A stretch of 64,000 nt of DNA from Clostridia bacterium (GCA_024405515.1 JAKSOR010000003.1:5655-69654), one strand, 5' to 3'; counted from the first letter of the stretch, positions 2 to 36,467 are shown. Notes: generated by a model not told the origin, from the letters alone. Numbers and translations are program-made.

Positions 2-1168
2 GCGTTATCTGAAGCTAGTAACACTGGCGTTGATGAATCTGGAAGTTTCAGCTTTTCATATACTGCAGAAAAAATCACTCTGAGCACAGGTTCAAAACTC
101 GGAGAACCAAAAAATAAATGTGTTGAGGGCGGATATACTGTAGAACAGGCAAATGTATTAGTAAGATACGACAAGAGTGCAACTCTTGACAGAGCATCTT
201 TACCGGTAGATTCATTTGCCGAAACAATGAAAGTATCCAATAGTAACCAGCTTTTCCGTGCAGTTTCCTGGGGATATAAACCTGTAATAGATCCTTCAGA
301 TACTGAACTCAAAGCGTTATATCAGAAAGCAAGAAATGTCCTTCTTACATACTGCGAAGATGAGATGAGTGACCTTGAAAAAGTTAAGGTTATTTATGAC
401 TGGATTGTAACAAATGTTGATTATGATACCGGTACACTGAATTCCGTTCTTCCGGACAGAACAGATTATAATGCATTCTATCTTGAAGGAGTTTTTAACG
501 ATAACCTTGCCGTATGCGATGGAAAGTCCAAAGCGTTTGCCCTTCTTTGCGGAATGGAAGGAATCAAATCGGAAAGAATAATGGGATATGCCGATAAACA
601 GCTCGGAGTCAAAAAAGCATTATGGTTAGCCGGAACATTTACGGAAGAAGAAAAAAGTGCTTTATCAACTCTGAAGAGCGGAACACCTGCAACCGCTTTT
701 GAAATGGGCAAATTAATGGCGGCTTACGGATGGGGACATGCCTGGAATAAGGTGCTGCTCGATGCGGACGGCGACGGAATAAGAGAGTGGTATGTTATAG
801 ACGTAACATGGGGAGATGTTTCAACGGGAGATTCTTTTGAGAAGACAGAATATCTCTCATACGACTATTTCCTTGTAACAGATGAGGACGTGGAAGGCAA
901 TCATTTCAGTAATCAGATGCAGTGTGCAGCAGAAACTGAGTATAATCCGTATATAAACGAAAGTATCAGTCATTCGGGCAGCACAATCCTTCTTGATGTT
1001 GCAACTCAGGCTCAGTATATAGAGATCGCAAATTACTGTAAATCAAATCCGGGATTATATGTTCCTGTCAAACTCGGTGCATCAGTAAATCCAGCAACCG
1101 GAATAAGTGGTGTAAGTTATCTTACTTTTAATGCCGGTTCAAGAATATATTACATATTAGCGGCATAA
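2..1168 (+). CDS. transglutaminase-like (Cys-His-Asp core) domain protein, 5' end outside window
   Basis: The frame of the 227..1168 ORF stays open with no stop back to nt 2, so the CDS enters from upstream. Motifs CDGKSKAFALLCGMEG (Cys), GHAWNKVL (His) and VIDVTWGD (Asp) occur in the order of the transglutaminase-core triad. Confidence 0.7.
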   Translation, partial: ALSEASNTGVDESGSFSFSYTAEKITLSTGSKLGEPKNKCVEGGYTVEQANVLVRYDKSATLDRASLPVDSFAETMKVSNSNQLFRAVSWGYKPVIDPSDTELKALYQKARNVLLTYCEDEMSDLEKVKVIYDWIVTNVDYDTGTLNSVLPDRTDYNAFYLEGVFNDNLAVCDGKSKAFALLCGMEGIKSERIMGYADKQLGVKKALWLAGTFTEEEKSALSTLKSGTPATAFEMGKLMAAYGWGHAWNKVLLDADGDGIREWYVIDVTWGDVSTGDSFEKTEYLSYDYFLVTDEDVEGNHFSNQMQCAAETEYNPYINESISHSGSTILLDVATQAQYIEIANYCKSNPGLYVPVKLGASVNPATGISGVSYLTFNAGSRIYYILAA

Positions 1169-1234: not shown

Positions 1235-2014
1235 TTATTTCTTTTTCTTCATTGACTTGAGGAAGAATATTGAGAAAATAAACTGTAATGCTGCAATTCC
1301 GACTGCAATGAATACTCCGTATGCCTGTGCTTCAAGGACATTTGCTAAATATGCCTGAAGTGAAATGCTGAGAAGGTCAGGATAGAGTGCAATTCCTACG
1401 ATTCCGTATGTAATACCGATTGCGAAGATAAGGTTGAAGATTCTTCCGTACTTCTTTCCGAAGAGTGCAATTAATGCAACGAGGAAATCAATAGCAATAA
1501 ATACTAATGCGATTGCAGGGAGAATTGATGTGATTCCATTAAGGAAACTTGTTGCGAATAAGCCTTTGAATGCTTCGAAATCATTGATTGCATCAGCAAT
1601 AACTCCGATTCCGTTGAAACGCTCGAAACCTCCGCAGAACGGGATGCTTACTCCGAGATATGCTATAACGTTGATTGCAATTAATAATGCAGAGAAGATA
1701 AGCATAAAGATATTTCTGATTGCACCGGATTTCTTTTCTGCTGCAACTTTCTCTTTCTTTTTCTTCTTTGATTTTTCCTCTTCTTTTGGTTCAACAGCTG
1801 TTCCCACTGGAATTGGTGTTTCAGGTGTGACTGCAAATTCATTCTGTGGTGTGAAGGATGTTACAGTGCTTTCCTGTTTAGGTATTTTAACGCCGATAGT
1901 TACACCGCAGCTTGGGCATTTGATCTTATGTTTATATCCATCAGGAAGATTTGCCATGTTCGCTGGTGGTTCAAAACTGATTTCAGATCTGCAACTTGGA
2001 CATTTTGTGTACAT
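1235..2014 (-). CDS. membrane protein with N-terminal zinc ribbon, Lys/Glu-rich linker and C-terminal 4-TM domain
   Basis: N-terminus has CPSC..(25 aa)..CPSCG, then EEEKSKKKKKEK, then four hydrophobic helices. The TM domain shares LFGKKYGRIF with LIFGKYPRAFF of the 32335..33183 protein. Confidence 0.6.
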   Translation of the reverse strand: MYTKCPSCRSEISFEPPANMANLPDGYKHKIKCPSCGVTIGVKIPKQESTVTSFTPQNEFAVTPETPIPVGTAVEPKEEEKSKKKKKEKVAAEKKSGAIRNIFMLIFSALLIAINVIAYLGVSIPFCGGFERFNGIGVIADAINDFEAFKGLFATSFLNGITSILPAIALVFIAIDFLVALIALFGKKYGRIFNLIFAIGITYGIVGIALYPDLLSISLQAYLANVLEAQAYGVFIAVGIAALQFIFSIFFLKSMKKKK

Positions 2015-2202
2015 AGTGAGCTCCTTTTATCTAAATTAATATTAGTACAAACATTATATTCTTTGATTACCCCAAAGTCAATTGTACTTTTGTTTTTGCA
2101 TCTCCATTCTACATCTATGAGTATGACAAGTTAGGGACACAATATGTATGGTATTTTGAGATTTTTCTTGCTATTTTTGACATGTTCGTATAATATTTTT
2201 GT

Positions 2203-2350
2203 GTAGGGTGCAGAAATAAATTTCTGATAATCGGGAAGACGGTGCAAATCCGTCACAGCCCCCGCTACTGTGAGTTTTAAATGCGATACGTCACCGAGAG
2301 GGAAGACACGCAGCTGGGAAATCAGTAACAAGCCAGGATACCGGCCCACA
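2203..2350 (+). promoter_or_regulatory. cobalamin (B12) riboswitch aptamer
   Basis: gggaagacggtgcaaatccgtcacagcccccgctactgtgag (2233-2274) matches the conserved GGGAA..GGTG.AA.TCC...CCCGC.ACTGT core. agccaggataccggcc (2331-2346) matches the B12 box. It sits directly 5' of a lipoprotein / ECF S-component pair. Confidence 0.85.
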
Positions 2351-2370
2351 AAAATATTTGTCTGTCATTC

Positions 2371-2937: not shown

Positions 2938-3540
2938 ATGGTAAATAAGCGTGTGAAACTTACATCGGCATATATAGCCAGGGTTGCACTTATGGCGGCG
3001 CTCTTGACAACTCTGAAACTGGCGTTTTCTTTTATCCCCAATGTGGAGGTGGTAACGCTTCTTATTCTTGTTTTTTCATCCTCATTCGGGTTGATTTATT
3101 CCTTGCCCGCAACGTTGATTTTCTGTCTTACGGAAATGCTTTTTTACGGGTTTAATTCCTGGGTGATTCTGTATTTTGTTTACTGGCCTCTCCTTGCTGT
3201 AATTTCTGCAGTTCTGCTTAAAAGAAAGAACGTTGCGGTGGCAGTTATTATTTCTGCGTTTCTTTCTTTTGTTTTTGGCGTGCTTTCAGCCTGTGCTGAT
3301 ACACTTTTCTGTGTTATGAAACTTTCCGGCCCGGATCTTGCCAAATATTTCGCGGCCTATTATTTAAGAGGTCTTTATTTCGATGTGATACATATTGTCT
3401 CCTCCTCGGTTATAGTTCTTGTGCTTTTCAGACCACTGACTGCCGTTTGCAGAAAAGTAATGCCAAAACCATATAATTCGGTTGTTACATCCGAAAGAAG
3501 ACTGATTAATTCGGATTATGAGTATATACGTGAAAAGTAG
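2938..3540 (+). CDS. ECF transporter S-component (CbrT-like, B12-riboswitch controlled)
   Basis: 200 aa with about six TM helices, the size and topology of ECF S-components. It sits downstream of the cobalamin riboswitch, and an ecfA1A2T module is at 24916-27447. Confidence 0.55.
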   Translation: MVNKRVKLTSAYIARVALMAALLTTLKLAFSFIPNVEVVTLLILVFSSSFGLIYSLPATLIFCLTEMLFYGFNSWVILYFVYWPLLAVISAVLLKRKNVAVAVIISAFLSFVFGVLSACADTLFCVMKLSGPDLAKYFAAYYLRGLYFDVIHIVSSSVIVLVLFRPLTAVCRKVMPKPYNSVVTSERRLINSDYEYIREK

Positions 3541-28248: not shown

Positions 28249-28272
28249 TGCCACTTATAAGTGGCAATTTTT
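28249..28272 (+). terminator. intrinsic terminator after truA
   Basis: tgccac (28249-28254) pairs with gtggca (28261-28266) with loop ttataa, followed by atttttc. Confidence 0.6.
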
Positions 28273-28318
28273 CTGTCAGGTTGACATAATATAAAATTAG
28301 TTTTATATTATTTATACT

Positions 28319-28699
28319 ATGCTGACCGTACGTTTTGAGAACAATTTGGACTGTAAAGAAATTTATAAGATTCTCGGTGTTTCAGATGAGGTGTCCGGAA
28401 CCAATTTTTTCATGTACGATGAAAACAATCCGGTGGCTCTTTTCAGAATGCATTTCGTAACAGAGGGTGAAATTGTCGGGATAATAGACAAAATCCATTT
28501 TCTTGACAGTGTTGAGGAAGGAGACAGAGTATTTTTCAAGCATGCCATATTTTTCAAACTTATAGAAGGTGCTCCGGTAAAATTAAGGATTATCGGAATA
28601 GACAGAGAGTTCGAAAAATACGGATTCAAGGAAGTAAACGGCAACATGGAAATTAATACGAAAGATATAAATTTGCACTATATGTGCGGTAAAAAATAA
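28319..28699 (+). CDS. hypothetical protein (126 aa), possibly a degenerate GNAT-like fold
   Basis: Uninterrupted ORF in AT-rich DNA that ends 2 nt before the glnS ORF. C-terminal [12 protein letters not shown] resembles a GNAT C-terminus, but the acetyl-CoA motif (Q/RxxGxG/A) is absent. No SD. Confidence 0.4.
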
Positions 28700-28701
28700 G
28701 G

Positions 28702-30330
28702 ATGACTATGGAAGACAATTCAAAAAATTTTATTGAAGAGATCATTGACGAAGAATTATCAGAAGGCAAAGTAAGTACTATCGTTACCCGTTTCCCTCCT
28801 GAACCAAACGGTTATCTCCATATCGGACATGCAAAAGCGTTATGCATAAACTTCGGTATGAAAGAAAAGTACAAAGGCAGATGCAACTTAAGATTTGATG
28901 ATACAAATCCGGCAAAAGAAGATGTCGAATATATGGAAAGCATCAAAGCAGATATTAAGTGGCTCGGTTTTGACTGGGATGAACTGCATAATGCATCGGA
29001 TTATTTCCCGAAAATGTATGAGTGTGCAGTCAAACTCATAAAAGACGGTAAGGCATATGTATGTGACCTCTCCGCTGAAGAAATCAGCCAGACAAGAGGT
29101 TCTTTCGGAGTCCCGGGCAAGGAAAGTCCATACAGAAACAGAAGTATTGAGGAAAACCTTGACCTCTTTGAGAGAATGAAAAAAGGTGAATTTGAGGATG
29201 GAGAGAAAGTTCTTCGTGCAAAAATTGATATGGCATCACCTAATATCAATATGAGAGACCCTGTTATCTACAGAATCTGCCATGCAACACATCCTCATAC
29301 AGGTGACCAGTGGGTTATTTATCCTATGTACGATTTTGCTCATCCTATTGAGGATGCAATCGAAGGTATCACACACTCACTCTGCTCCCTTGAGTTTGAG
29401 AATCACAGACCATTATATGACTGGGTAACAGTCAACTGCGGCTTTGATCCGAGACCGAGACAGATTGAGTTCGCAAGACTTAATCTCACGCATACAGTAA
29501 TGAGCAAACGTTTTATCAAGCGTCTTGTTGATGAAGGTATTGTATGGGGATGGGATGACCCTAGACTTTCAACACTTTCAGGTATCAGGGAAAGAGGATA
29601 TACACCTGAGGCAATCAAAGATTTCTGTTCAAGAATTGGTATAGCAAAGGCAGACAGTGAAGTCGATATCGCAGTTCTTGAGCACTGCGTAAGAGAAGAC
29701 CTCAACAACAATGCAACAAGAGCAATGGTTGTAACAAAACCTCTTAAACTTGTTGTGGACAATTATCCGGAAGGGAAAACTGAAGAAGTTGAGATAGATA
29801 ATAATCCTCAGAAAGAAGGAAGCGGCACACATAAGACAACTTTCTCAAAAGAACTTTATATTGAGCAGGAAGATTTTTCATTAGATCCGCCTCCGAAATA
29901 TTTCCGTCTCAAACCGGATGGAATAGTAAGACTCAAAGGGGCATACATCGTTAAATATGTTTCCTGTGAACTTGATAAGGACGGAAATCCTGAAACGGTT
30001 CATGTTGAATATATTCCTGGGACAAAATCCGGTGAGGAAGGTGCAAACATGAAAGTCAAAGGCACAATTCACTGGGTAAACGCAAACGACTGTGATGATG
30101 TCAGAATCAATATGTTTGATTATCTTATCAGTGACGGAGACGGAGACTATATGGACAGAGTAAACAGAAACTCCCTTACTGTTTTAAACGGAAAAGCAGA
30201 AAAATTTGTTACTGCAGCTCCTGTACATACAAGATTCCAGTTCCTCAGAGAGGGATATTTCATTAAACGTAATGAAGAAAACGAATTCAACAGCATTGTA
30301 GGACTGAAAGACAGTTACAAACCACAATAA
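28702..30330 (+). CDS. glnS: glutamine--tRNA ligase
   Basis: [17 protein letters not shown] (HIGH) and VMSKR (KMSKS). 542 aa. The second ATG at 28708 has better spacing to the taagga SD and may be the true start. Confidence 0.92.
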
Positions 30331-30348
30331 ATAGAAAAGGAAAGAGAT

Positions 30349-31548
30349 ATGTTTATCTGTAAAATTTGCGGAAACGAACTTAAACAGGGTCAGGCTTTCT
30401 GTAACACATGCGGTGCTGATGCGGTAGACAATTATGAAACCGTGTGTCCTTCCTGTGGCTCAAAGAACGGGTCAGGAAGCAGATACTGTGCAAAATGCGG
30501 CGGTATACTGCAGGTTATGAGAAAACCTGTCTGTGTTGTCTGCGGCACAAAAAATCTGCCGGGGGCACTTTTCTGTGTTTCTTGCGGAGCTCCTCTTATT
30601 GTGGAGAAGGAAACCCATGACGAGGATGAGGTTCTTGATGCAAGACATGTAAAGCAGCGCCTTGATGCAATGGAAAAAGACAGAATGGCAGCTGTTGACA
30701 AAGAAATCGAAGAGATTAAAGCGAAGGCAAAGGAAGACATACTCTTTTCAAAACAGGAAATAGAACGCTATAAGCAGAAAGTTGAGGAAGACCTCAACAA
30801 AAGAGCAGAGATGCTCGACGCATACAGGAAGAAACTGAACGAACTCGGTTCGGATGATGTTGCACTTCTGAAGAAAATGTCAGAGGCGCTCAAGTCATAT
30901 TCCGAGTATTATGCAGATCCGTTCTCTCAGATAGACGAAGATGATATCAGCGGGAACACATATGTATGTCCTATATGCGGAACAATAAATCCGGTGGATG
31001 CAACTAACTGTACCCATTGCGGCAGAAATAAGGCAAGAGCACTGCTTCTCCTGGCAAAGGGCAGAATTAAACAGAGCCCTCCGGTAAAGAGAAGAGAGGA
31101 AATAATTCCTGCTCCTGAAAAGGAGTTCGGAATCCAGAAGGCTCCTAGCATAGATGAATTCGCAACATCGTATATGAGTGCGAACAAAGCAGGAGAGAAT
31201 AAAGAGGAAACAGAGGAACCTAAGAAACAGAAAGGACCGGAAAACTTTTCACAGGGTAATCCGAATCCTTACTATCAGTATCCTCCGTATTATCAGTATC
31301 CTCCGCAGGGGGCACCTCAGCAGATGCCGCCTCAGGGACAGATTCCTCCTCAGCAGATGCCACAGGGCGCGTACTATATGGGACCTGGCGGTTATCAGAT
31401 GACACCTATTGTTCAGCCGGTTGCTTTTGTTCCGTATGTAACACAGGAACAGCCGCTTATGCAGTATTCACCTACAATAGAGCAGCCAAAACCACAGCCT
31501 GTACAAAAACCGCAGCAGCCCGAACAAATTAAGAAAAAACGTAAATAA
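30349..31548 (+). CDS. soluble multi-zinc-ribbon protein with coiled coil and Pro/Gln-rich tail, function unknown
   Basis: Five CxxC..CxxC ribbons: four in the N-terminal ~80 aa (CKIC..CNTC, CPSC..CAKC, CVVC..CVSC) and a fifth at CPIC..CTHC. Central E/K-rich helical region. C-terminal YYQYPPYYQYPPQGAPQQMPPQGQ. No TM helix. Confidence 0.6.
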   Translation: MFICKICGNELKQGQAFCNTCGADAVDNYETVCPSCGSKNGSGSRYCAKCGGILQVMRKPVCVVCGTKNLPGALFCVSCGAPLIVEKETHDEDEVLDARHVKQRLDAMEKDRMAAVDKEIEEIKAKAKEDILFSKQEIERYKQKVEEDLNKRAEMLDAYRKKLNELGSDDVALLKKMSEALKSYSEYYADPFSQIDEDDISGNTYVCPICGTINPVDATNCTHCGRNKARALLLLAKGRIKQSPPVKRREEIIPAPEKEFGIQKAPSIDEFATSYMSANKAGENKEETEEPKKQKGPENFSQGNPNPYYQYPPYYQYPPQGAPQQMPPQGQIPPQQMPQGAYYMGPGGYQMTPIVQPVAFVPYVTQEQPLMQYSPTIEQPKPQPVQKPQQPEQIKKKRK

Positions 31549-32324
31549 TGGATGAGAAGAAAGGGAAGAAAAAACCTGTTGATGAAGCAGGTATAAGGCT
31601 TGCTCCTACACCATTAAGAAGCAGCGAAATGAATGTACTGCCACCTGTAAGGCAGGATTTTATCATCACGCCGCACATTGAAATTAATGAAAATACAGAA
31701 CAGGATAAAGATTCCGCTTCGACCCTTGATGATTATCAGCCAAAGAAAGAGGAAATAAGCAAGAGGTGGAAACGAGGCCAGAGAGGAAAGAATATTCTTA
31801 CTGGCTCACTTGTGTTCATAATTACCATATTCGCGGTGCTGCCTTATATACTTGGTGCCTGCGGAGTGGATCCGGAATCACTTCCTTTCAGATATATCCC
31901 GGTCAGATTCAGCTCTGTCGGTAATATAATAAAAGCCTTTACAGTTACAGCTTCTGAAGGCTGGGCCGGAGATACTGTTAATCAGGTATGGATTAATGCA
32001 ATACCTGATTTGGTGATTGTTGTAGGAATAATTGCCCTTGTTATAAATGCTGTTAAGTCTTTATATGCAATGTTTGCAGCAGTCAAACAGCAGAAATACG
32101 CAGCATGGGCGTCTGTATACCTTATCTGCATCCTGGCAGTTTTTATAGCAGCACTTGTCGGAATTCCGCAGATGGGCATAGAAAAAATGGATTTTATAAA
32201 TGATTTTATATACAACTGCAGTACATGTGAACTCTTCACAATGGTGGTTATTGCTCTTGGTTATCTTGTAGTGACAATAGTGATAAGTTCCGTAGGAAGG
32301 GATAAACAGGGATATTTAGCATAG
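31548..32324 (+). CDS. 4-TM membrane protein, paralog family with 32335..33183 and 1235..2014
   Basis: ATG overlaps the upstream stop (TAATG). ~85-aa polar N-terminus then four TM helices. Loop motif NIIKAF...GWAGDTV matches NIIKAI...WVGGGTV of the next gene. Confidence 0.55.
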   Translation: MDEKKGKKKPVDEAGIRLAPTPLRSSEMNVLPPVRQDFIITPHIEINENTEQDKDSASTLDDYQPKKEEISKRWKRGQRGKNILTGSLVFIITIFAVLPYILGACGVDPESLPFRYIPVRFSSVGNIIKAFTVTASEGWAGDTVNQVWINAIPDLVIVVGIIALVINAVKSLYAMFAAVKQQKYAAWASVYLICILAVFIAALVGIPQMGIEKMDFINDFIYNCSTCELFTMVVIALGYLVVTIVISSVGRDKQGYLA

Positions 32325-32334
32325 GAGGGACAGA

Positions 32335-33183
32335 ATGGCAAAGAAAGAACGAAAAGATGAAATAGTTTTTTCACCTGCGGATGATTCCGAAGTCAGGGTC
32401 ACCGAAGAAGAAAAGCCAATGTATGAAACTGAAGCATACGGTTCACCAAAACCGGATGCCGGTTCAGAAGTTACCGTTATGAAACAGGTCGGTATCGGCG
32501 GACCGGTACCTATTGTTGCGCCTAAACATAATACCATTCAGCTTCAGCCTATTGTTGTTCCGCTTGCAGTTGTTCCTTATATGACACAGGACAGCAATGT
32601 TCTGAGAACTGACGGAAAGCAGCAGACTTATGAAGAGGAAGAATATAATGAAGCTGCAAAATTTGATGTAGCAAAAGAAAAGAAGAAAAAAATCAAAAAC
32701 AAAGAGAGCAGATTCTCAAGACTCTTTGCATTTATCACAATGCTTATTTCCCTCATTGTTGAAATACCGTTCATTATTTCATACTTCGGGAAGACAATCG
32801 GCGGCGAAAATCTTGATTATCTCAATATTATTAAAGCCATTGAAACGTGGGTTGGCGGCGGAACTGTAGATGATATAGTTGCAGCAGCGCTGTTCATCGG
32901 AACATTTGCCTTTGCCGGCATCACTGCTTTGGTTGCACTGCTTTCTCTTATATTCGGCAAATACCCGAGGGCATTCTTCGGAATATTCACATTTGTGTCA
33001 TTCGGTTCTTCTATAGCCGTTATGATTATTCAGATGTTCAATGGTGTGTTTGACTTAGCACTTTCAAAGATTCTCATCGCACTTATTTCAGTGACAGGAT
33101 TCAGCTTTGTTCTTTCAATTGTGTTCTCCATGATCCTTAACAGCATAGAGGACAAAAAAGAAAAGACAATCAGCGAGATTTAA
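32335..33183 (+). CDS. 4-TM membrane protein, paralog family, N-terminal PIVxPxAxVPYxTQ motif
   Basis: SD ggaggga. N-terminal polar region contains PIVVPLAVVPYMTQ. Four TM helices. LIFGKYPRAFF matches the 1235..2014 protein. Confidence 0.55.
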   Translation: MAKKERKDEIVFSPADDSEVRVTEEEKPMYETEAYGSPKPDAGSEVTVMKQVGIGGPVPIVAPKHNTIQLQPIVVPLAVVPYMTQDSNVLRTDGKQQTYEEEEYNEAAKFDVAKEKKKKIKNKESRFSRLFAFITMLISLIVEIPFIISYFGKTIGGENLDYLNIIKAIETWVGGGTVDDIVAAALFIGTFAFAGITALVALLSLIFGKYPRAFFGIFTFVSFGSSIAVMIIQMFNGVFDLALSKILIALISVTGFSFVLSIVFSMILNSIEDKKEKTISEI

Positions 33184-33194
33184 GGCAGGTAAAG

Positions 33195-33977
33195 ATGTCT
33201 TTAAAACTGGTATCTCTGGCAAGCGGGAGCAAAGGAAACGCAACACTGGTATTTTCTGACAGAACAGCACTGCTTATAGATGCCGGGATATCATATACAC
33301 AGATAAATACAAGGCTCAGAGAGTTTGGTCTCTGTGTTTCCGGACTTGATGGAATACTGATAACGCATGAACATGCCGATCATATAGCAGGTCTTGCACG
33401 TTCATCAAAAGACTGCAGAATATATGCCCACCATCTTACGAAGAGCGCAATCTTAAAAAAGATAGGGGCGCAGATGGAAATATCTTCGTTCGAAGATATC
33501 CCTGATTTTATGGATGGTTTCCTTATCGGCGATATTTTTGTTAAACCGTTTGAAACATCCCACGATGCAGCATTCCCGGTGGCATATACTTTTGAGTGTG
33601 GTGGATCCAGAGTCAGCATACTCACAGACACTGGTACGGTTTCAAGAAGTATGTTTGAAAACATATGCAGAAGTCAGGCTGTCCTTATTGAGGCAAATCA
33701 TGACAGAGACATGCTTATTAACGGTCCGTATGTTTATCCTTTAAAAAGGCGTATTCTTTCGGATCTGGGGCATATGTCCAATGCTATGTGTGCAAAAGTT
33801 GTCAGCAGACTTGTTGAGAATGGTATCACAAAGCAGATACTAATCGGTCATCTGAGCGAAATCAACAACAGGCCGGAAATAGCATATAAGGAAGTCAATT
33901 CCGTGGTAATGAACAGTGAAGCGGAAGTGTTTCTGACATATCAGAATAAGAGAAGCGAGGTTTGTGTGGCAGAATGA
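33195..33977 (+). CDS. MBL-fold metallo-hydrolase (YycJ/WalJ-like)
   Basis: SGSKGNA, ITHEHADH and GHLS motifs. 260 aa. Confidence 0.8.
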   Translation: MSLKLVSLASGSKGNATLVFSDRTALLIDAGISYTQINTRLREFGLCVSGLDGILITHEHADHIAGLARSSKDCRIYAHHLTKSAILKKIGAQMEISSFEDIPDFMDGFLIGDIFVKPFETSHDAAFPVAYTFECGGSRVSILTDTGTVSRSMFENICRSQAVLIEANHDRDMLINGPYVYPLKRRILSDLGHMSNAMCAKVVSRLVENGITKQILIGHLSEINNRPEIAYKEVNSVVMNSEAEVFLTYQNKRSEVCVAE

Positions 33978-35053
33978 GAAAAATGATTGGTGCAAGCGAG
34001 AGTTCTTCCATTTATCTCTGGGGTATATGCTCCAGCAGTATTCTTGCTACACTTTTTTCACTCTTTTTAGTCAGTACGGGTACTTTTTCCGGCATGAGTG
34101 TCACGAGTTGGGTGTGTTATGTAATCATGCAGATTGCATTTATCCTCACGGTAGTTGTTTACTCAACAGTCAGAAAACTTGATATAGGATATATATGCCG
34201 GCTGAAAAAAGCTCCGAAACCTCTTCAGATTGTGCTCCTTCCGTTTATTGCAGTGGCAACAATCATGATATTCCTTCCTTTTGCAAATCTGTGGACATCT
34301 TTCCTTTCACTTATCGGTTACAGCGGCTCGGTAGCAACTCCGCAGTTTGATAATGTCGGTGTGTATTTTCTTGCACTTGTTATAATGGCACTGATTCCTG
34401 CTTTCGGAGAGGAATTCTTTATGAGGGGAACAGTATTCCCGGGACTTTCAACAAGAGGCACATGGTTTGGCATACTGATGAGCGGACTGTTTTTCTCATT
34501 AATGCATGCTAATCCTTATCAGACCGTGCATCAGTTTGGTCTCGGAGTGGTCCTTGCAATTGTGCTCCTTATAACCGGTTCGCTGTGGTGCGGGGTAATC
34601 ATTCACTTTTTAAATAATTTCATATCACTCACAATTACGGCATATATTCCGGAAATAGATATGTGGTACATAAAGCTCGGATACTGGAACTGGCTTACTG
34701 GTGCTGCCAGTGTAATAGTCGGAGTTGTCCTTCTCGTAATTCTTCTTTTCTTCCTTTATAAGGTAAGTAATAAAGATTCCGGCAGTTATTCAAATTCTGT
34801 CTCAGGAGACGGATATACTCTTTATGTAAGTTCTGAACAGATGGGAGTGAAGAAGCCTAATATATTTGTTCAACTCGGAAGATTCATCAAATCATTATTT
34901 ACAAAGAGCGGCTGGAGAAAAATCACAAATTCGCTTGAAAGCGGAAATAATATGCAGTACCTTGGCAAGAGTCAGCCTATGACGGCAGTATGGATTGCTT
35001 TGGGACTTGTCATAGTTTATTGGTTTATAAACTTTATTATCGGCCTTATATGA
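33974..35053 (+). CDS. CPBP-family intramembrane glutamic endopeptidase (CAAX/Abi)
   Basis: EEFFMRG, FSLMHAN and HFLNN are the three CPBP motifs. ATGA overlap with the MBL gene. Confidence 0.8.
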   Translation: MRKMIGASESSSIYLWGICSSSILATLFSLFLVSTGTFSGMSVTSWVCYVIMQIAFILTVVVYSTVRKLDIGYICRLKKAPKPLQIVLLPFIAVATIMIFLPFANLWTSFLSLIGYSGSVATPQFDNVGVYFLALVIMALIPAFGEEFFMRGTVFPGLSTRGTWFGILMSGLFFSLMHANPYQTVHQFGLGVVLAIVLLITGSLWCGVIIHFLNNFISLTITAYIPEIDMWYIKLGYWNWLTGAASVIVGVVLLVILLFFLYKVSNKDSGSYSNSVSGDGYTLYVSSEQMGVKKPNIFVQLGRFIKSLFTKSGWRKITNSLESGNNMQYLGKSQPMTAVWIALGLVIVYWFINFIIGLI

Positions 35054-36012
35054 TGAGCAGAAGATTAAAAGCCGGCATATTATATTTCATTATTGTTATA
35101 GCCACTCTCATCTTGAGAGTGTGTTCTTATTTTAGGGTCTATGAAAGCCTTGGAATTGACGGAGATGAATATTTTACTCCTGTGATACAGATCCTTATTT
35201 TCGGCGGGATTTCACTTGTCGGGTATCTGCTGTTTTCTCTTAAAGATAAAGATATCAGAGCATCTTTTAAAGAGGACTTCGGTTTCAGAAAGATATCAGG
35301 GAAAACCTTTTTATTAACTATTCCGATAACCATATGCATGATTATAGTATCTACCGGGATTTCATATGTATGGCAGGTGATTCTTTCCGTGACCGGGTTT
35401 ACGAGAGTCTCAGCATCAACAGATTATTCAACCGTGGCAGTCTTATTTGAAGAGCTTATTTTGACTGCATTGCTGCCAGGGGTATTTGAGGAAATCGCAA
35501 ACAGGGGACTTATTTACTCCGGATACAGGGAATGTGGATGGAAATATGTTCTGGTGTCAGGACTTTTATTTGCGCTCGCTCATCAGAATATTGTTCAGAC
35601 CGGATATACATTCTTTGACGGATGCCTTATTGCTCTTGTAATGTTCTATACAGGTTCAGTATGGCCGGGAATGCTGATGCATATTATCAACAACGGATAT
35701 TCTGTTGTAAGTGGCTACATTGCCCAGAACGGAGGACCTTTGTCATTCATTAATACAATTTCCGACTGGTTAAATTCAACGACAGGCGGTTATATTGTAT
35801 CCGTTCTCTGTATACTGTTTGCCGGAATACTCCTGATTGTGCTTTTTGCAGCGATGAGAAAGGATGCTGTTAAAAAAGGAATAGTAAACGAGAACAGACT
35901 TTTTGAAAAAACAGATGCATTGCCGCTTTATAAGGACATACCATTTATCATTACTGTCCTTGTAGGCATAGCAGCAACGTCATTCAGTTTTGTCTGGGGG
36001 ATTATGAGATGA
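35050..36012 (+). CDS. CPBP-family intramembrane glutamic endopeptidase (second copy)
   Basis: FEEIANRG, FALAHQN and HIINN. Start set at MMSRRLK (35050), giving an ATGA overlap with the previous stop. Confidence 0.8.
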   Translation: MMSRRLKAGILYFIIVIATLILRVCSYFRVYESLGIDGDEYFTPVIQILIFGGISLVGYLLFSLKDKDIRASFKEDFGFRKISGKTFLLTIPITICMIIVSTGISYVWQVILSVTGFTRVSASTDYSTVAVLFEELILTALLPGVFEEIANRGLIYSGYRECGWKYVLVSGLLFALAHQNIVQTGYTFFDGCLIALVMFYTGSVWPGMLMHIINNGYSVVSGYIAQNGGPLSFINTISDWLNSTTGGYIVSVLCILFAGILLIVLFAAMRKDAVKKGIVNENRLFEKTDALPLYKDIPFIITVLVGIAATSFSFVWGIMR

Positions 36013-36467
36013 AAATAAATATTGTTGCAGTAGGGAAAATCAAGGAAAGTTATTATACTGATGCTGTGAATGAATATTCAAAAAGAATATCAAGGTTTGC
36101 CGATTTCAGGGTCATTGAAGTTGCTGAGGCACCGCAGAATAAAAGCATAGATGAACAGAAAGTTATTGAAAGCCATAACCTTGCGGAAAAGGCACAGGGG
36201 TATATAATAGCCCTTGATCCCCAGGGTAAGAAAATATCTTCTGAAGGAATGGCGGATCTGATTAAATCAAAATGTGTTGAAGGGAAGAGTGAATTTTCTT
36301 TTCTCATTGGCGGCAGCCACGGCTTAAGTGATGAAATCAAAAAGACAGCAGATCTGAAAATATCATTCAGTGATCTCACATTCCCTCACCAGCTTTTCAG
36401 GGTAATGCTGTCGGAACAGCTTTACAGAGCGCTTACCATAATAAATAACGTACCATACCACAAATGA
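36009..36467 (+). CDS. rlmH: 23S rRNA (pseudouridine1915-N3)-methyltransferase RlmH
   Basis: 152-aa SPOUT protein with MKINIVAVGKIKE at the N-terminus and IGGSHGL...LFRVMLSEQLYRA at the C-terminus. Confidence 0.88.
   Translation: MKINIVAVGKIKESYYTDAVNEYSKRISRFADFRVIEVAEAPQNKSIDEQKVIESHNLAEKAQGYIIALDPQGKKISSEGMADLIKSKCVEGKSEFSFLIGGSHGLSDEIKKTADLKISFSDLTFPHQLFRVMLSEQLYRALTIINNVPYHK

Follow-up and report, generated by a model that had tools for sequence, protein, structure and literature searches.

The closest described counterpart of the proteins reported here is AuxB of Staphylococcus aureus, a four-helix protein of DUF4064, in the tetraspanin-like clan, with both ends in the cytoplasm and no catalytic residues, which forms dimers and binds the coiled-coil scaffold GpsB through a cytoplasmic motif (PMC12505970). 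We analysed a 64,000-nucleotide stretch of DNA (hereafter the window; GCA_024405515.1, JAKSOR010000003.1:5655-69654) from an uncultured gut bacterium of the Clostridia, whose relatives are Christensenellales genomes assembled from metagenomes. The window holds three consecutive genes, named G1 (30349), G2 (31548) and G3 (32335), and a distant minus-strand paralogue, G4 (1235..2014). Our comparisons assign all four to a single lineage-restricted family of uncultured gut and rumen Christensenellales, assembled from up to three kinds of module: one or more zinc ribbons, an unannotated four-helix membrane domain and a proline-rich motif.

AuxB and the membrane proteins of this family are small and have four membrane helices, and the termini of the family proteins are predicted to be cytoplasmic by the positive-inside rule. 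The AuxB motif is an SRxxK-type hexapeptide, whereas the family motif is N-terminal, up to ~50 residues long and proline-rich. AuxB uses Trp86 for dimerisation; no alignment shows its equivalence to the conserved Trp172 of G3 or Trp139 of G2. None of the window proteins matched DUF4064 (PF13273, cut-off 32.1 bits) at E values up to 1. Among relatives, one of 44 distant members matched at E 0.054 and 4 of 33 G4 relatives at E up to 10; the best score, 21.4 bits for a G4 relative, came from an offset alignment covering helices 2–4 only. Membership of DUF4064, prompted by a faint match of a neighbouring gene in locus L081 and by the four weak G4 relatives, was rejected because these matches are below threshold and not colinear. 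AuxB is best regarded as a functional analogy, in which the logic appears to be shared and the family is not.

In ZipA-type tethers, a Pro/Gln-rich flexible linker connects an anchor with a binding module. A comparable logic can be read into G1, in which a variable Pro/Gln/Tyr linker separates the folded part from a short conserved element, but the two proteins are unrelated in sequence, and G1 has neither a membrane helix nor an FtsZ-binding domain. The four CxxC...CxxC units of G1 match DZR (PF12773), Zn_Ribbon_1 (PF13240) and Zn_ribbon_3 (PF13248) above threshold; these are generic small domains of no defined function, silent on the coiled coil, the linker, the motif and the membrane partners. 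The G4 ribbon resembles the Brz/MJ0042 type (PF23454, TIGR02098), with sub-threshold matches in 32 of 33 G4-family members (best E 3.7e-7); window G4 scores 18.2 bits against a cut-off of 27.9 for PF23454 and 14.4 against 20.9 for TIGR02098. Brz/MJ0042 families are soluble regulators or prefix domains, whereas G4 is a membrane protein.

An earlier note on this DNA could name no described system of such composition, and none emerged from the family, defence, phage and structure libraries searched. Profile searches of the PDB gave chance-level matches only. Foldseek searches of AlphaFold2 (AF2) models against the PDB reached E 0.35 for G3 and 0.76 for G4 at best, with generic four-helix bundles such as synaptogyrin as top fold matches (TM-score 0.54 on the target). 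Two further identities were tried and dropped: an amyloid-signalling motif pair of adjacent genes, since the motif contains six or seven prolines, and an anti-sigma factor, since HxxxCxxC is missing and a sigma gene lies nearby in one lineage only.

Membrane domain, proline-rich motif and zinc ribbons

The family genes of the window and their parts are as follows.

30349-31548, plus strand: G1, 399 aa, soluble zinc-ribbon and probable coiled-coil protein with the family motif at its C-terminus
30358..30585, plus strand: zinc ribbons 1-3 of G1, CxxC at residues 4/18, 33/47 and 62/76
30616..30918, plus strand: charged helical region of G1, residues ~90-190, rich in E, K, D, A and L
30967..31098, plus strand: zinc ribbon 4 of G1, CxxC at residues 207/221, with the conserved basic segment CGRxKARA.LLLAKGKIKQSPPVKRK
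31201..31395, plus strand: variable Pro/Gln/Tyr-rich linker of G1, differing in length and sequence among orthologues
31396..31467, plus strand: family motif in G1, QMTPIVQPVAFVPYVTQEQPLMQY, residues 350-373
31548-32324, plus strand: G2, 258 aa, four-helix membrane paralogue
31590..31676, plus strand: decayed motif copy in G2, AGIRLAPTPLRSSEMNVLPPVRQDFIITP
31797..32297, plus strand: four-helix membrane domain of G2, hydrophobic segments at residues 89-107, 151-169, 188-206 and 229-247
32335-33183, plus strand: G3, 282 aa, motif and four-helix membrane protein of the canonical family architecture
32461..32613, plus strand: family motif in G3, GSEVTVMKQVGIGGPVPIVAPKHNTIQLQPIVVPLAVVPYMTQDSNVLRTD, residues 43-93
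32710..33138, plus strand: four-helix membrane domain of G3
1235-2014, minus strand: G4, 259 aa, N-terminal zinc ribbon, disordered linker and four-helix membrane domain, no motif

G2, G3 and G4 each contain exactly four hydrophobic segments, in line with the four transmembrane helices proposed for them, and the AF2 models of G3 and G4 agree, both having four long helices with a pLDDT (predicted local distance difference test) of ~90 in this domain. Pairwise BLASTP among the three proteins gave no significant match. Full-length profiles matched at 97% for G3–G2 (E 6e-11), 98% for G3–G4 (E 1e-14) and 80% for G2–G4. Because hydrophobic proteins inflate profile scores, the alignments were trimmed to the membrane domain and controls were added. 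The trimmed profiles scored 63.6 for G3–G4 (E 6e-10), 40.5 for G3–G2 (E 7e-6) and 23.5 for G2–G4, the last not significant. Control profiles, either reversed or built from unrelated CPBP and EcfT proteins of the same genomes, stayed at or below 24, save for one short 37-column self-reverse match with a score of 34; the positive control, a pair of CPBP paralogues, scored 231.

Independent searches gave a similar picture. With the database size set to 1.84e9, HMMER linked G3 and G4 at E 3.5e-8 and 3.8e-7, and G2 to both at ~1e-3. The whole-library search with the G3 profile recovered G4-family proteins (P0340, P0344, P0351, P0358 and P0235; E 6e-8 to 5e-4), and within the window the only other match of the G3 membrane profile was G4, and vice versa. 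Bridging G2-like proteins from sister lineages (P0352, P0354 and P0360) scored 57–80 bits with the G2 profile and 40–43 bits with the G3 profile. These results indicate that the four-helix domains of G2, G3 and G4 are homologous; the case is strong for G3–G4, and G2 is placed in the family by its match to the G3 profile and by the bridging sequences. The earlier note had described three copies of one transmembrane module in the window, to be abandoned if alignments proved non-significant; pairwise BLASTP is indeed null, but the controlled profile alignments are significant for G3–G4 and G3–G2. The short resemblances it had pointed to fall into register, NIIKAI..W aligning with NIIKAF..GW between G2 and G3 and GKYPRAF of G3 occupying paired columns with GKKYGRIF of G4.

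A profile search with G3 against 1.84 billion representative proteins (E up to 1e-3) returned only 104 relatives, none with a Pfam match; all are unnamed or hypothetical, and where a source is given, it is an assembly of Christensenellales or Clostridia. The membrane domain of G2–G4 and their relatives matched no Pfam or NCBIfam family at threshold. Most of the distant members, 17–28% identical to G3, consist of the motif, an acidic linker, a basic stretch and four helices. Conserved features of the G3 domain are LPF(I/V)L in helix 1, Trp172 in the outer loop, GKYPR in the inner loop and a C-terminal LN..ED helix; Trp172 and, in G2, Trp139 are near-invariant in the first outer loop. No conserved polar residue lies inside the G3 helices in the orthologue alignment, and, in the predicted orientation, the conserved residues (the GKYPR loop, the LN..ED helix and the C-terminal EI) are at the cytoplasmic face. 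These features make the membrane domain look more like a scaffold than a transporter or an enzyme.

The feature that ties G1 to the membrane proteins lies outside this domain. The pattern GPVPI..P....QL.PIVQP.A.VPY.TQ.QPL.QY occurs at the C-terminus of G1 and near the N-terminus of G3, and it is the most strongly conserved segment of both proteins. In G3, residues 43–93, GS(D/E)VTVMK.VGIGGPVPIVAPKHNTIQLQPIVVPLAVVPYMTQDSNVLRTD, form a block of ~50 residues with ~35 invariant columns among 32 orthologues that are 44–88% identical overall, more conserved than the membrane domain itself. In G1, the near-invariant core spans ~24 residues, and QMPPIVQPVAFVPYVTQEQPLMQY is the one such island inside the variable Pro/Gln/Tyr-rich tail of the orthologues. 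The motif islands of the two families align with each other (hhalign score 51, E 2.6e-6). A six-frame search of the window with a hidden Markov model built from 63 family sequences gave two matches and no others, G3 at 63.5 bits and G1 at 55.8 bits, and the core pattern was found in 74 G1 and 72 G3 open reading frames of related loci and in no other open reading frame there or in the window. Neither Pfam, NCBIfam, PADLOC nor PHROGs contains a match to the motif, and a literature search with the motif strings found none. The earlier note had recorded these segments as polar termini and a tail, and so appears to have missed the main unifying feature of the cluster.

In G2 the conserved N-terminus APTPL....NVLPPVRQDFIITP aligns weakly to the motif site (hhalign 19.3 against 11.5 for the reversed control). 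Because G2-like proteins of sister lineages (again P0352, P0354 and P0360) keep a clear motif, LPVS.P.PI..P....IQL.P.VQP.A.VPY, the G2 segment is taken to be a decayed copy. A remnant in the G4 linker was not detectable by the same comparison (9.2 against 8.3 for the reversed control). The motif is predicted to face the cytoplasm, since basic residues precede helix 1 and helices 2 and 3 are joined by the GKYPR loop, as the positive-inside rule would have it, and since signal peptides are absent from the family and the motif is also found on soluble ribbon-bearing proteins. Residues 1–107 of the AF2 model of G3, which include the motif, have pLDDT values below 50, a signature that may indicate a segment folding only on a partner.

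G3 ends in SEI (33172-33180), and its last two residues, Glu-Ile, are the same in each of the 32 aligned orthologues. G1 ends in a similar (S/N)EI in three divergent genomes (L070, L072 and L073). The terminal (S/N)EI of G3 and some G1 proteins may be a second shared signal.

G1 itself was described as a soluble protein with five zinc ribbons and a Pro/Gln-rich tail. It does lack any hydrophobic segment, and the Pro/Gln/Tyr-rich tail is present; the ribbons, on the other hand, number four, counted from eight CxxC pairs (residues 4, 18, 33, 47, 62, 76, 207 and 221) and from four Pfam-matched stretches (DZR 63.7 bits, cut-off 25; Zn_Ribbon_1 60.0 bits, cut-off 27.3). The cysteine columns are kept across the orthologue alignment. 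Residues ~90–190, which match coiled-coil families weakly, probably form a coiled coil. What the fused proteins of other lineages share with G1 is ribbon 4 with its basic segment.

Module combinations and gene neighbourhood

The three modules recur across lineages in every combination, in tandem arrays that directly follow glnS. Architectures elsewhere include motif with four helices, ribbon with motif, ribbon with motif and four helices, and motif-only proteins of 70–90 residues, and some lineages carry arrays of seven or eight family genes. The most informative are fusions. P0370 (583 aa) combines a ribbon, a long coiled coil, the motif and four helices in a single chain; a 398-aa protein of locus L081 has two ribbons, the motif, a charged helical stretch and four hydrophobic segments; and a 368-aa protein of locus L131 has two ribbons, the motif and four hydrophobic segments. 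In all three, the ribbon matches the G1 profile at ~199–293, that is, ribbon 4 and the basic helix, and in L081 and L131 the fusion gene lies directly 3' of glnS, in the position of G1. P0370 is the sole fusion whose membrane part matched the family transmembrane profiles, and it did so weakly.

These fusions bear on the Rosetta-stone argument of the earlier note, which took G4 as a fusion of the zinc-ribbon part with the membrane domain. G4 does contain both parts, but its ribbon (M-Y-T-x-CPxC, 24 residues, CPxCG-V) is of another type than those of G1, to which it bears a generic likeness only (hhalign 41%), and the motif is missing. The idea that ribbon and membrane parts belong together holds up, whereas G4 was a weak basis for it; P0370, L081 and L131, in which ribbon, motif and four-helix modules appear joined, make the stronger case.

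Motif-only proteins of 72–91 residues occur up to three in tandem (L081, L091 and L141). Those of L141, L081, L131, L105 and L170 start with a basic segment, followed by the motif, and finish in an acidic, Tyr-rich part, and their genes are interleaved with motif and four-helix genes after glnS.

Upstream of the family genes in the window lie the following features.

28249-28266: bidirectional terminator, just 5' of the promoter-like site
28281..28309, plus strand: candidate promoter-like site TTGACA-17-TATATT, 11/12 match to consensus
28319..28699, plus strand: unk126, 126 aa, no family match
28702..30330, plus strand: glnS, glutaminyl-tRNA synthetase (GlnRS), Pfam tRNA-synt_1c and both C-terminal domains

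Positions 28319-36467 form a tight same-strand block comprising unk126, glnS, G1, G2, G3, a metallo-beta-lactamase (MBL)-fold hydrolase, two CPBP/Rce1-like proteases and rlmH. The terminator and promoter at 28249-28309 are the sole convincing pair and precede this block, so that 28281-28309 is the likely start of a transcript carrying unk126, glnS and G1–G3. As the earlier note had it for glnS to rlmH, no intergenic terminator was found between 28319 and 36467. Every gap within the block is at most 18 nt, or the genes overlap: 18 nt separate glnS from G1, 10 nt G2 from G3 and 11 nt G3 from the MBL gene, and the previously noted TAATG at 31546-31550 is indeed an overlap of the G1 stop with the G2 start. 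Ribosome-binding sites are good for G1 and G3 and weak for G2. In most related loci the G1–G2 gap is 15 nt or less.

The order (ecfT-truA)-unk126-glnS-G1-G2-G3-MBL-CPBP-CPBP-rlmH is found in 78 species-level genome loci, wherever the contig reaches, and G1, G2 and G3 form distinct orthologous lines in all of these species with full coverage. G1 orthologues were present in 74 of the 78 loci, the remaining four being cut short upstream, and glnS precedes the array in each locus with enough upstream sequence. In all genome loci of sufficient length, the cluster sits inside one fixed block, ecfT-truA-glnS ... rlmH-tadA-pth-mfd. When 241 million metagenome records were scanned, without regard to context, for DNA that could code for PIVQP.A.VPY, 112 stretches came up; the 80 metagenomic loci listed all contain family arrays, and among these, 47 of the 49 ribbon and motif genes with at least 1 kb upstream are immediately preceded by glnS in the same orientation. 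Deeper lineages have acpP-rpmG-secE-nusG as the downstream flank, with glnS still directly upstream. The run into MBL, CPBP, CPBP and rlmH noted earlier is thus true of the window lineage and not general, and MBL and CPBP are lineage-specific neighbours. Since glnS is constant while the downstream flank changes, the conserved core consists of glnS, the ribbon and motif gene and the membrane paralogues. Most related loci whose sequence reaches far enough upstream, deep lineages included, have the small gene unk126 5' of glnS; its homologue in L081 contains a GNAT-like RGRGLG segment, which is missing from the window copy. The two CPBP/Rce1-like genes (33962-36012, plus strand) are paralogues of each other (hhalign 99.9%); their listed starts fall 16 and 64 nt inside the preceding genes, and their true starts are probably further downstream for that reason.

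G4 stands alone, away from glnS, in a conserved context of its own. In the three most divergent genome loci (L072, L073 and L074), a G4 homologue lies directly after rlmH on the minus strand, adjoining the G1–G3 block. In the window, G4 adjoins a transglutaminase-core protein on the opposite strand (227-1168, plus strand; PF01841, E 2.9e-9) and is divergent from a unit headed by a cobalamin riboswitch (2189-2362, plus strand; Rfam RF00174, 95.9 bits). The riboswitch is 5' of two genes with neither a Pfam nor an NCBIfam match, a lipoprotein-like gene at 2386-2892 and a multi-helix membrane gene at 2938-3540, which may be an unannotated B12 uptake pair. The synteny of this unit with G4 is kept in locus L093.

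A possible membrane-face assembly and its alternatives

The reading that we prefer, and hold as possible rather than probable, is that of a complex peculiar to this lineage on the inner side of the membrane, with the shared motif joining its members or directing them there. Because the motif is disordered on its own in the model and yet is the most conserved segment, we read it as a docking element by which G1 and its membrane partners, G3 and the diverged G2, would bind each other or a common partner, which would give a hetero-oligomeric assembly at the inner membrane face, with the Pro/Gln/Tyr linker of G1 as a flexible tether. More speculatively, the complex could serve a housekeeping organisation of the envelope or division machinery, as suggested by the constitutive-looking co-transcription with glnS and by the WalJ-like MBL and two CPBP neighbours in this lineage; the CPBP-type protein SpdC acts on WalK in S. 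aureus.

Several points weigh against such a complex. The motif is very proline-rich, unlike any known docking motif, and so nearly invariant that it yields no covariation signal. G4 stands alone without it, so the membrane domain may function without the motif. Synteny that is strictly vertical within a clade says little, taken alone, for functional coupling, and the neighbours that point to an envelope or division role are not conserved in deeper lineages. Co-transcription of the block is suggested by gene spacing alone: four public read runs of unknown library type gave 150–450-base contigs at a depth of 2–5, two of which cross the G1/G2 and G2/G3 junctions, and such sparse contigs cannot show co-transcription.

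The same motif could instead be a recognition signal for a single third-party partner, such as a protease (for example, the two downstream CPBP proteins), a chaperone or insertase, or GlnRS, with the family members as parallel clients or substrates and not subunits. Its presence on very different carriers, including tandem 72-aa proteins, fits the usual pattern of a tag for targeting or recognition; glnS is a constant neighbour, CPBP genes follow the cluster in the window lineage and its sister lineages, and CPBP relatives include sorting-signal proteases (NCBIfam MrtS match). On the other hand, the deeper lineages with the largest arrays have no CPBP or MBL genes nearby, the window GlnRS has the standard three Pfam domains only, and no result singles out a partner; we consider this account, the main rival, rather improbable. 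Less probable again is that the genes are independent, perhaps redundant, paralogues whose common motif and operon reflect nothing but descent by tandem duplication. The copy number of the arrays varies, G4 is a single gene in its own context and the motif has decayed in G2, as such a history would predict, but three distinct orthologous lines persist in all 78 species with full coverage, the motif is what G1 and G3 conserve most strongly, soluble G1 keeps it without a membrane domain, and parts of the G1 and G3 types are joined in fusions.

CPBP/Abi proteins are bacteriocin-immunity factors, and the adjacent MBL hydrolase, which matches Avs1a and Apyc1 models weakly, and Abi-type proteases could hint at a defence, bacteriocin-immunity or mobile-element module. 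This idea is close to refuted: G2, G3 and G4 have no match in PADLOC or PHROG, the G1 matches there (LmuB and a phage DNA-binding protein) are weak, sub-threshold and confined to the coiled-coil and ribbon regions, none of 2.9 million viral contigs contains a relative, no bacteriocin precursor or transporter lies nearby, and the cluster keeps its fixed housekeeping position. Chance resemblance of hydrophobic proteins, with no family at all, has the non-significant pairwise BLASTP in its favour, but is contradicted by the controlled profiles, the whole-library matches, the bridging sequences and the motif; it is refuted for G3–G4 and G1–G3, and we give it practically no weight.

A more specific form of the preferred complex can be sketched, which we regard as doubtful. 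In it, the arrays next to glnS would code for tetraspanin-like paralogues, the ribbon and coiled-coil protein and, in some lineages, several subunits of 70–90 residues, which would polymerise or dock through the proline-rich module into a hitherto unrecognised assembly at the cytoplasmic face that is specific to Christensenellales.

Meaning for the Christensenellales

The family is real, restricted to one lineage and outside every library searched, and its most conserved feature is a new motif. Christensenellales are widespread, health-associated gut bacteria, most of which have never been cultured, so that the hosts of these genes are abundant yet unstudied. The whole family has remained unannotated, yet it is present in all 78 species-level genomes sampled, within a housekeeping operon. 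The motif and the membrane domain could serve as profile models to annotate such proteins, and the shuffled combinations of modules give testable predictions of binding pairs. If the motif does serve docking or assembly, it would be an interaction module of a new kind and could reveal a lineage-specific organisation of the inner membrane face. Should the polymerising or docking assembly outlined above prove true, bacteria would have a membrane scaffold or cytoskeleton-like system of a kind not seen before, which GlnRS might couple to growth.

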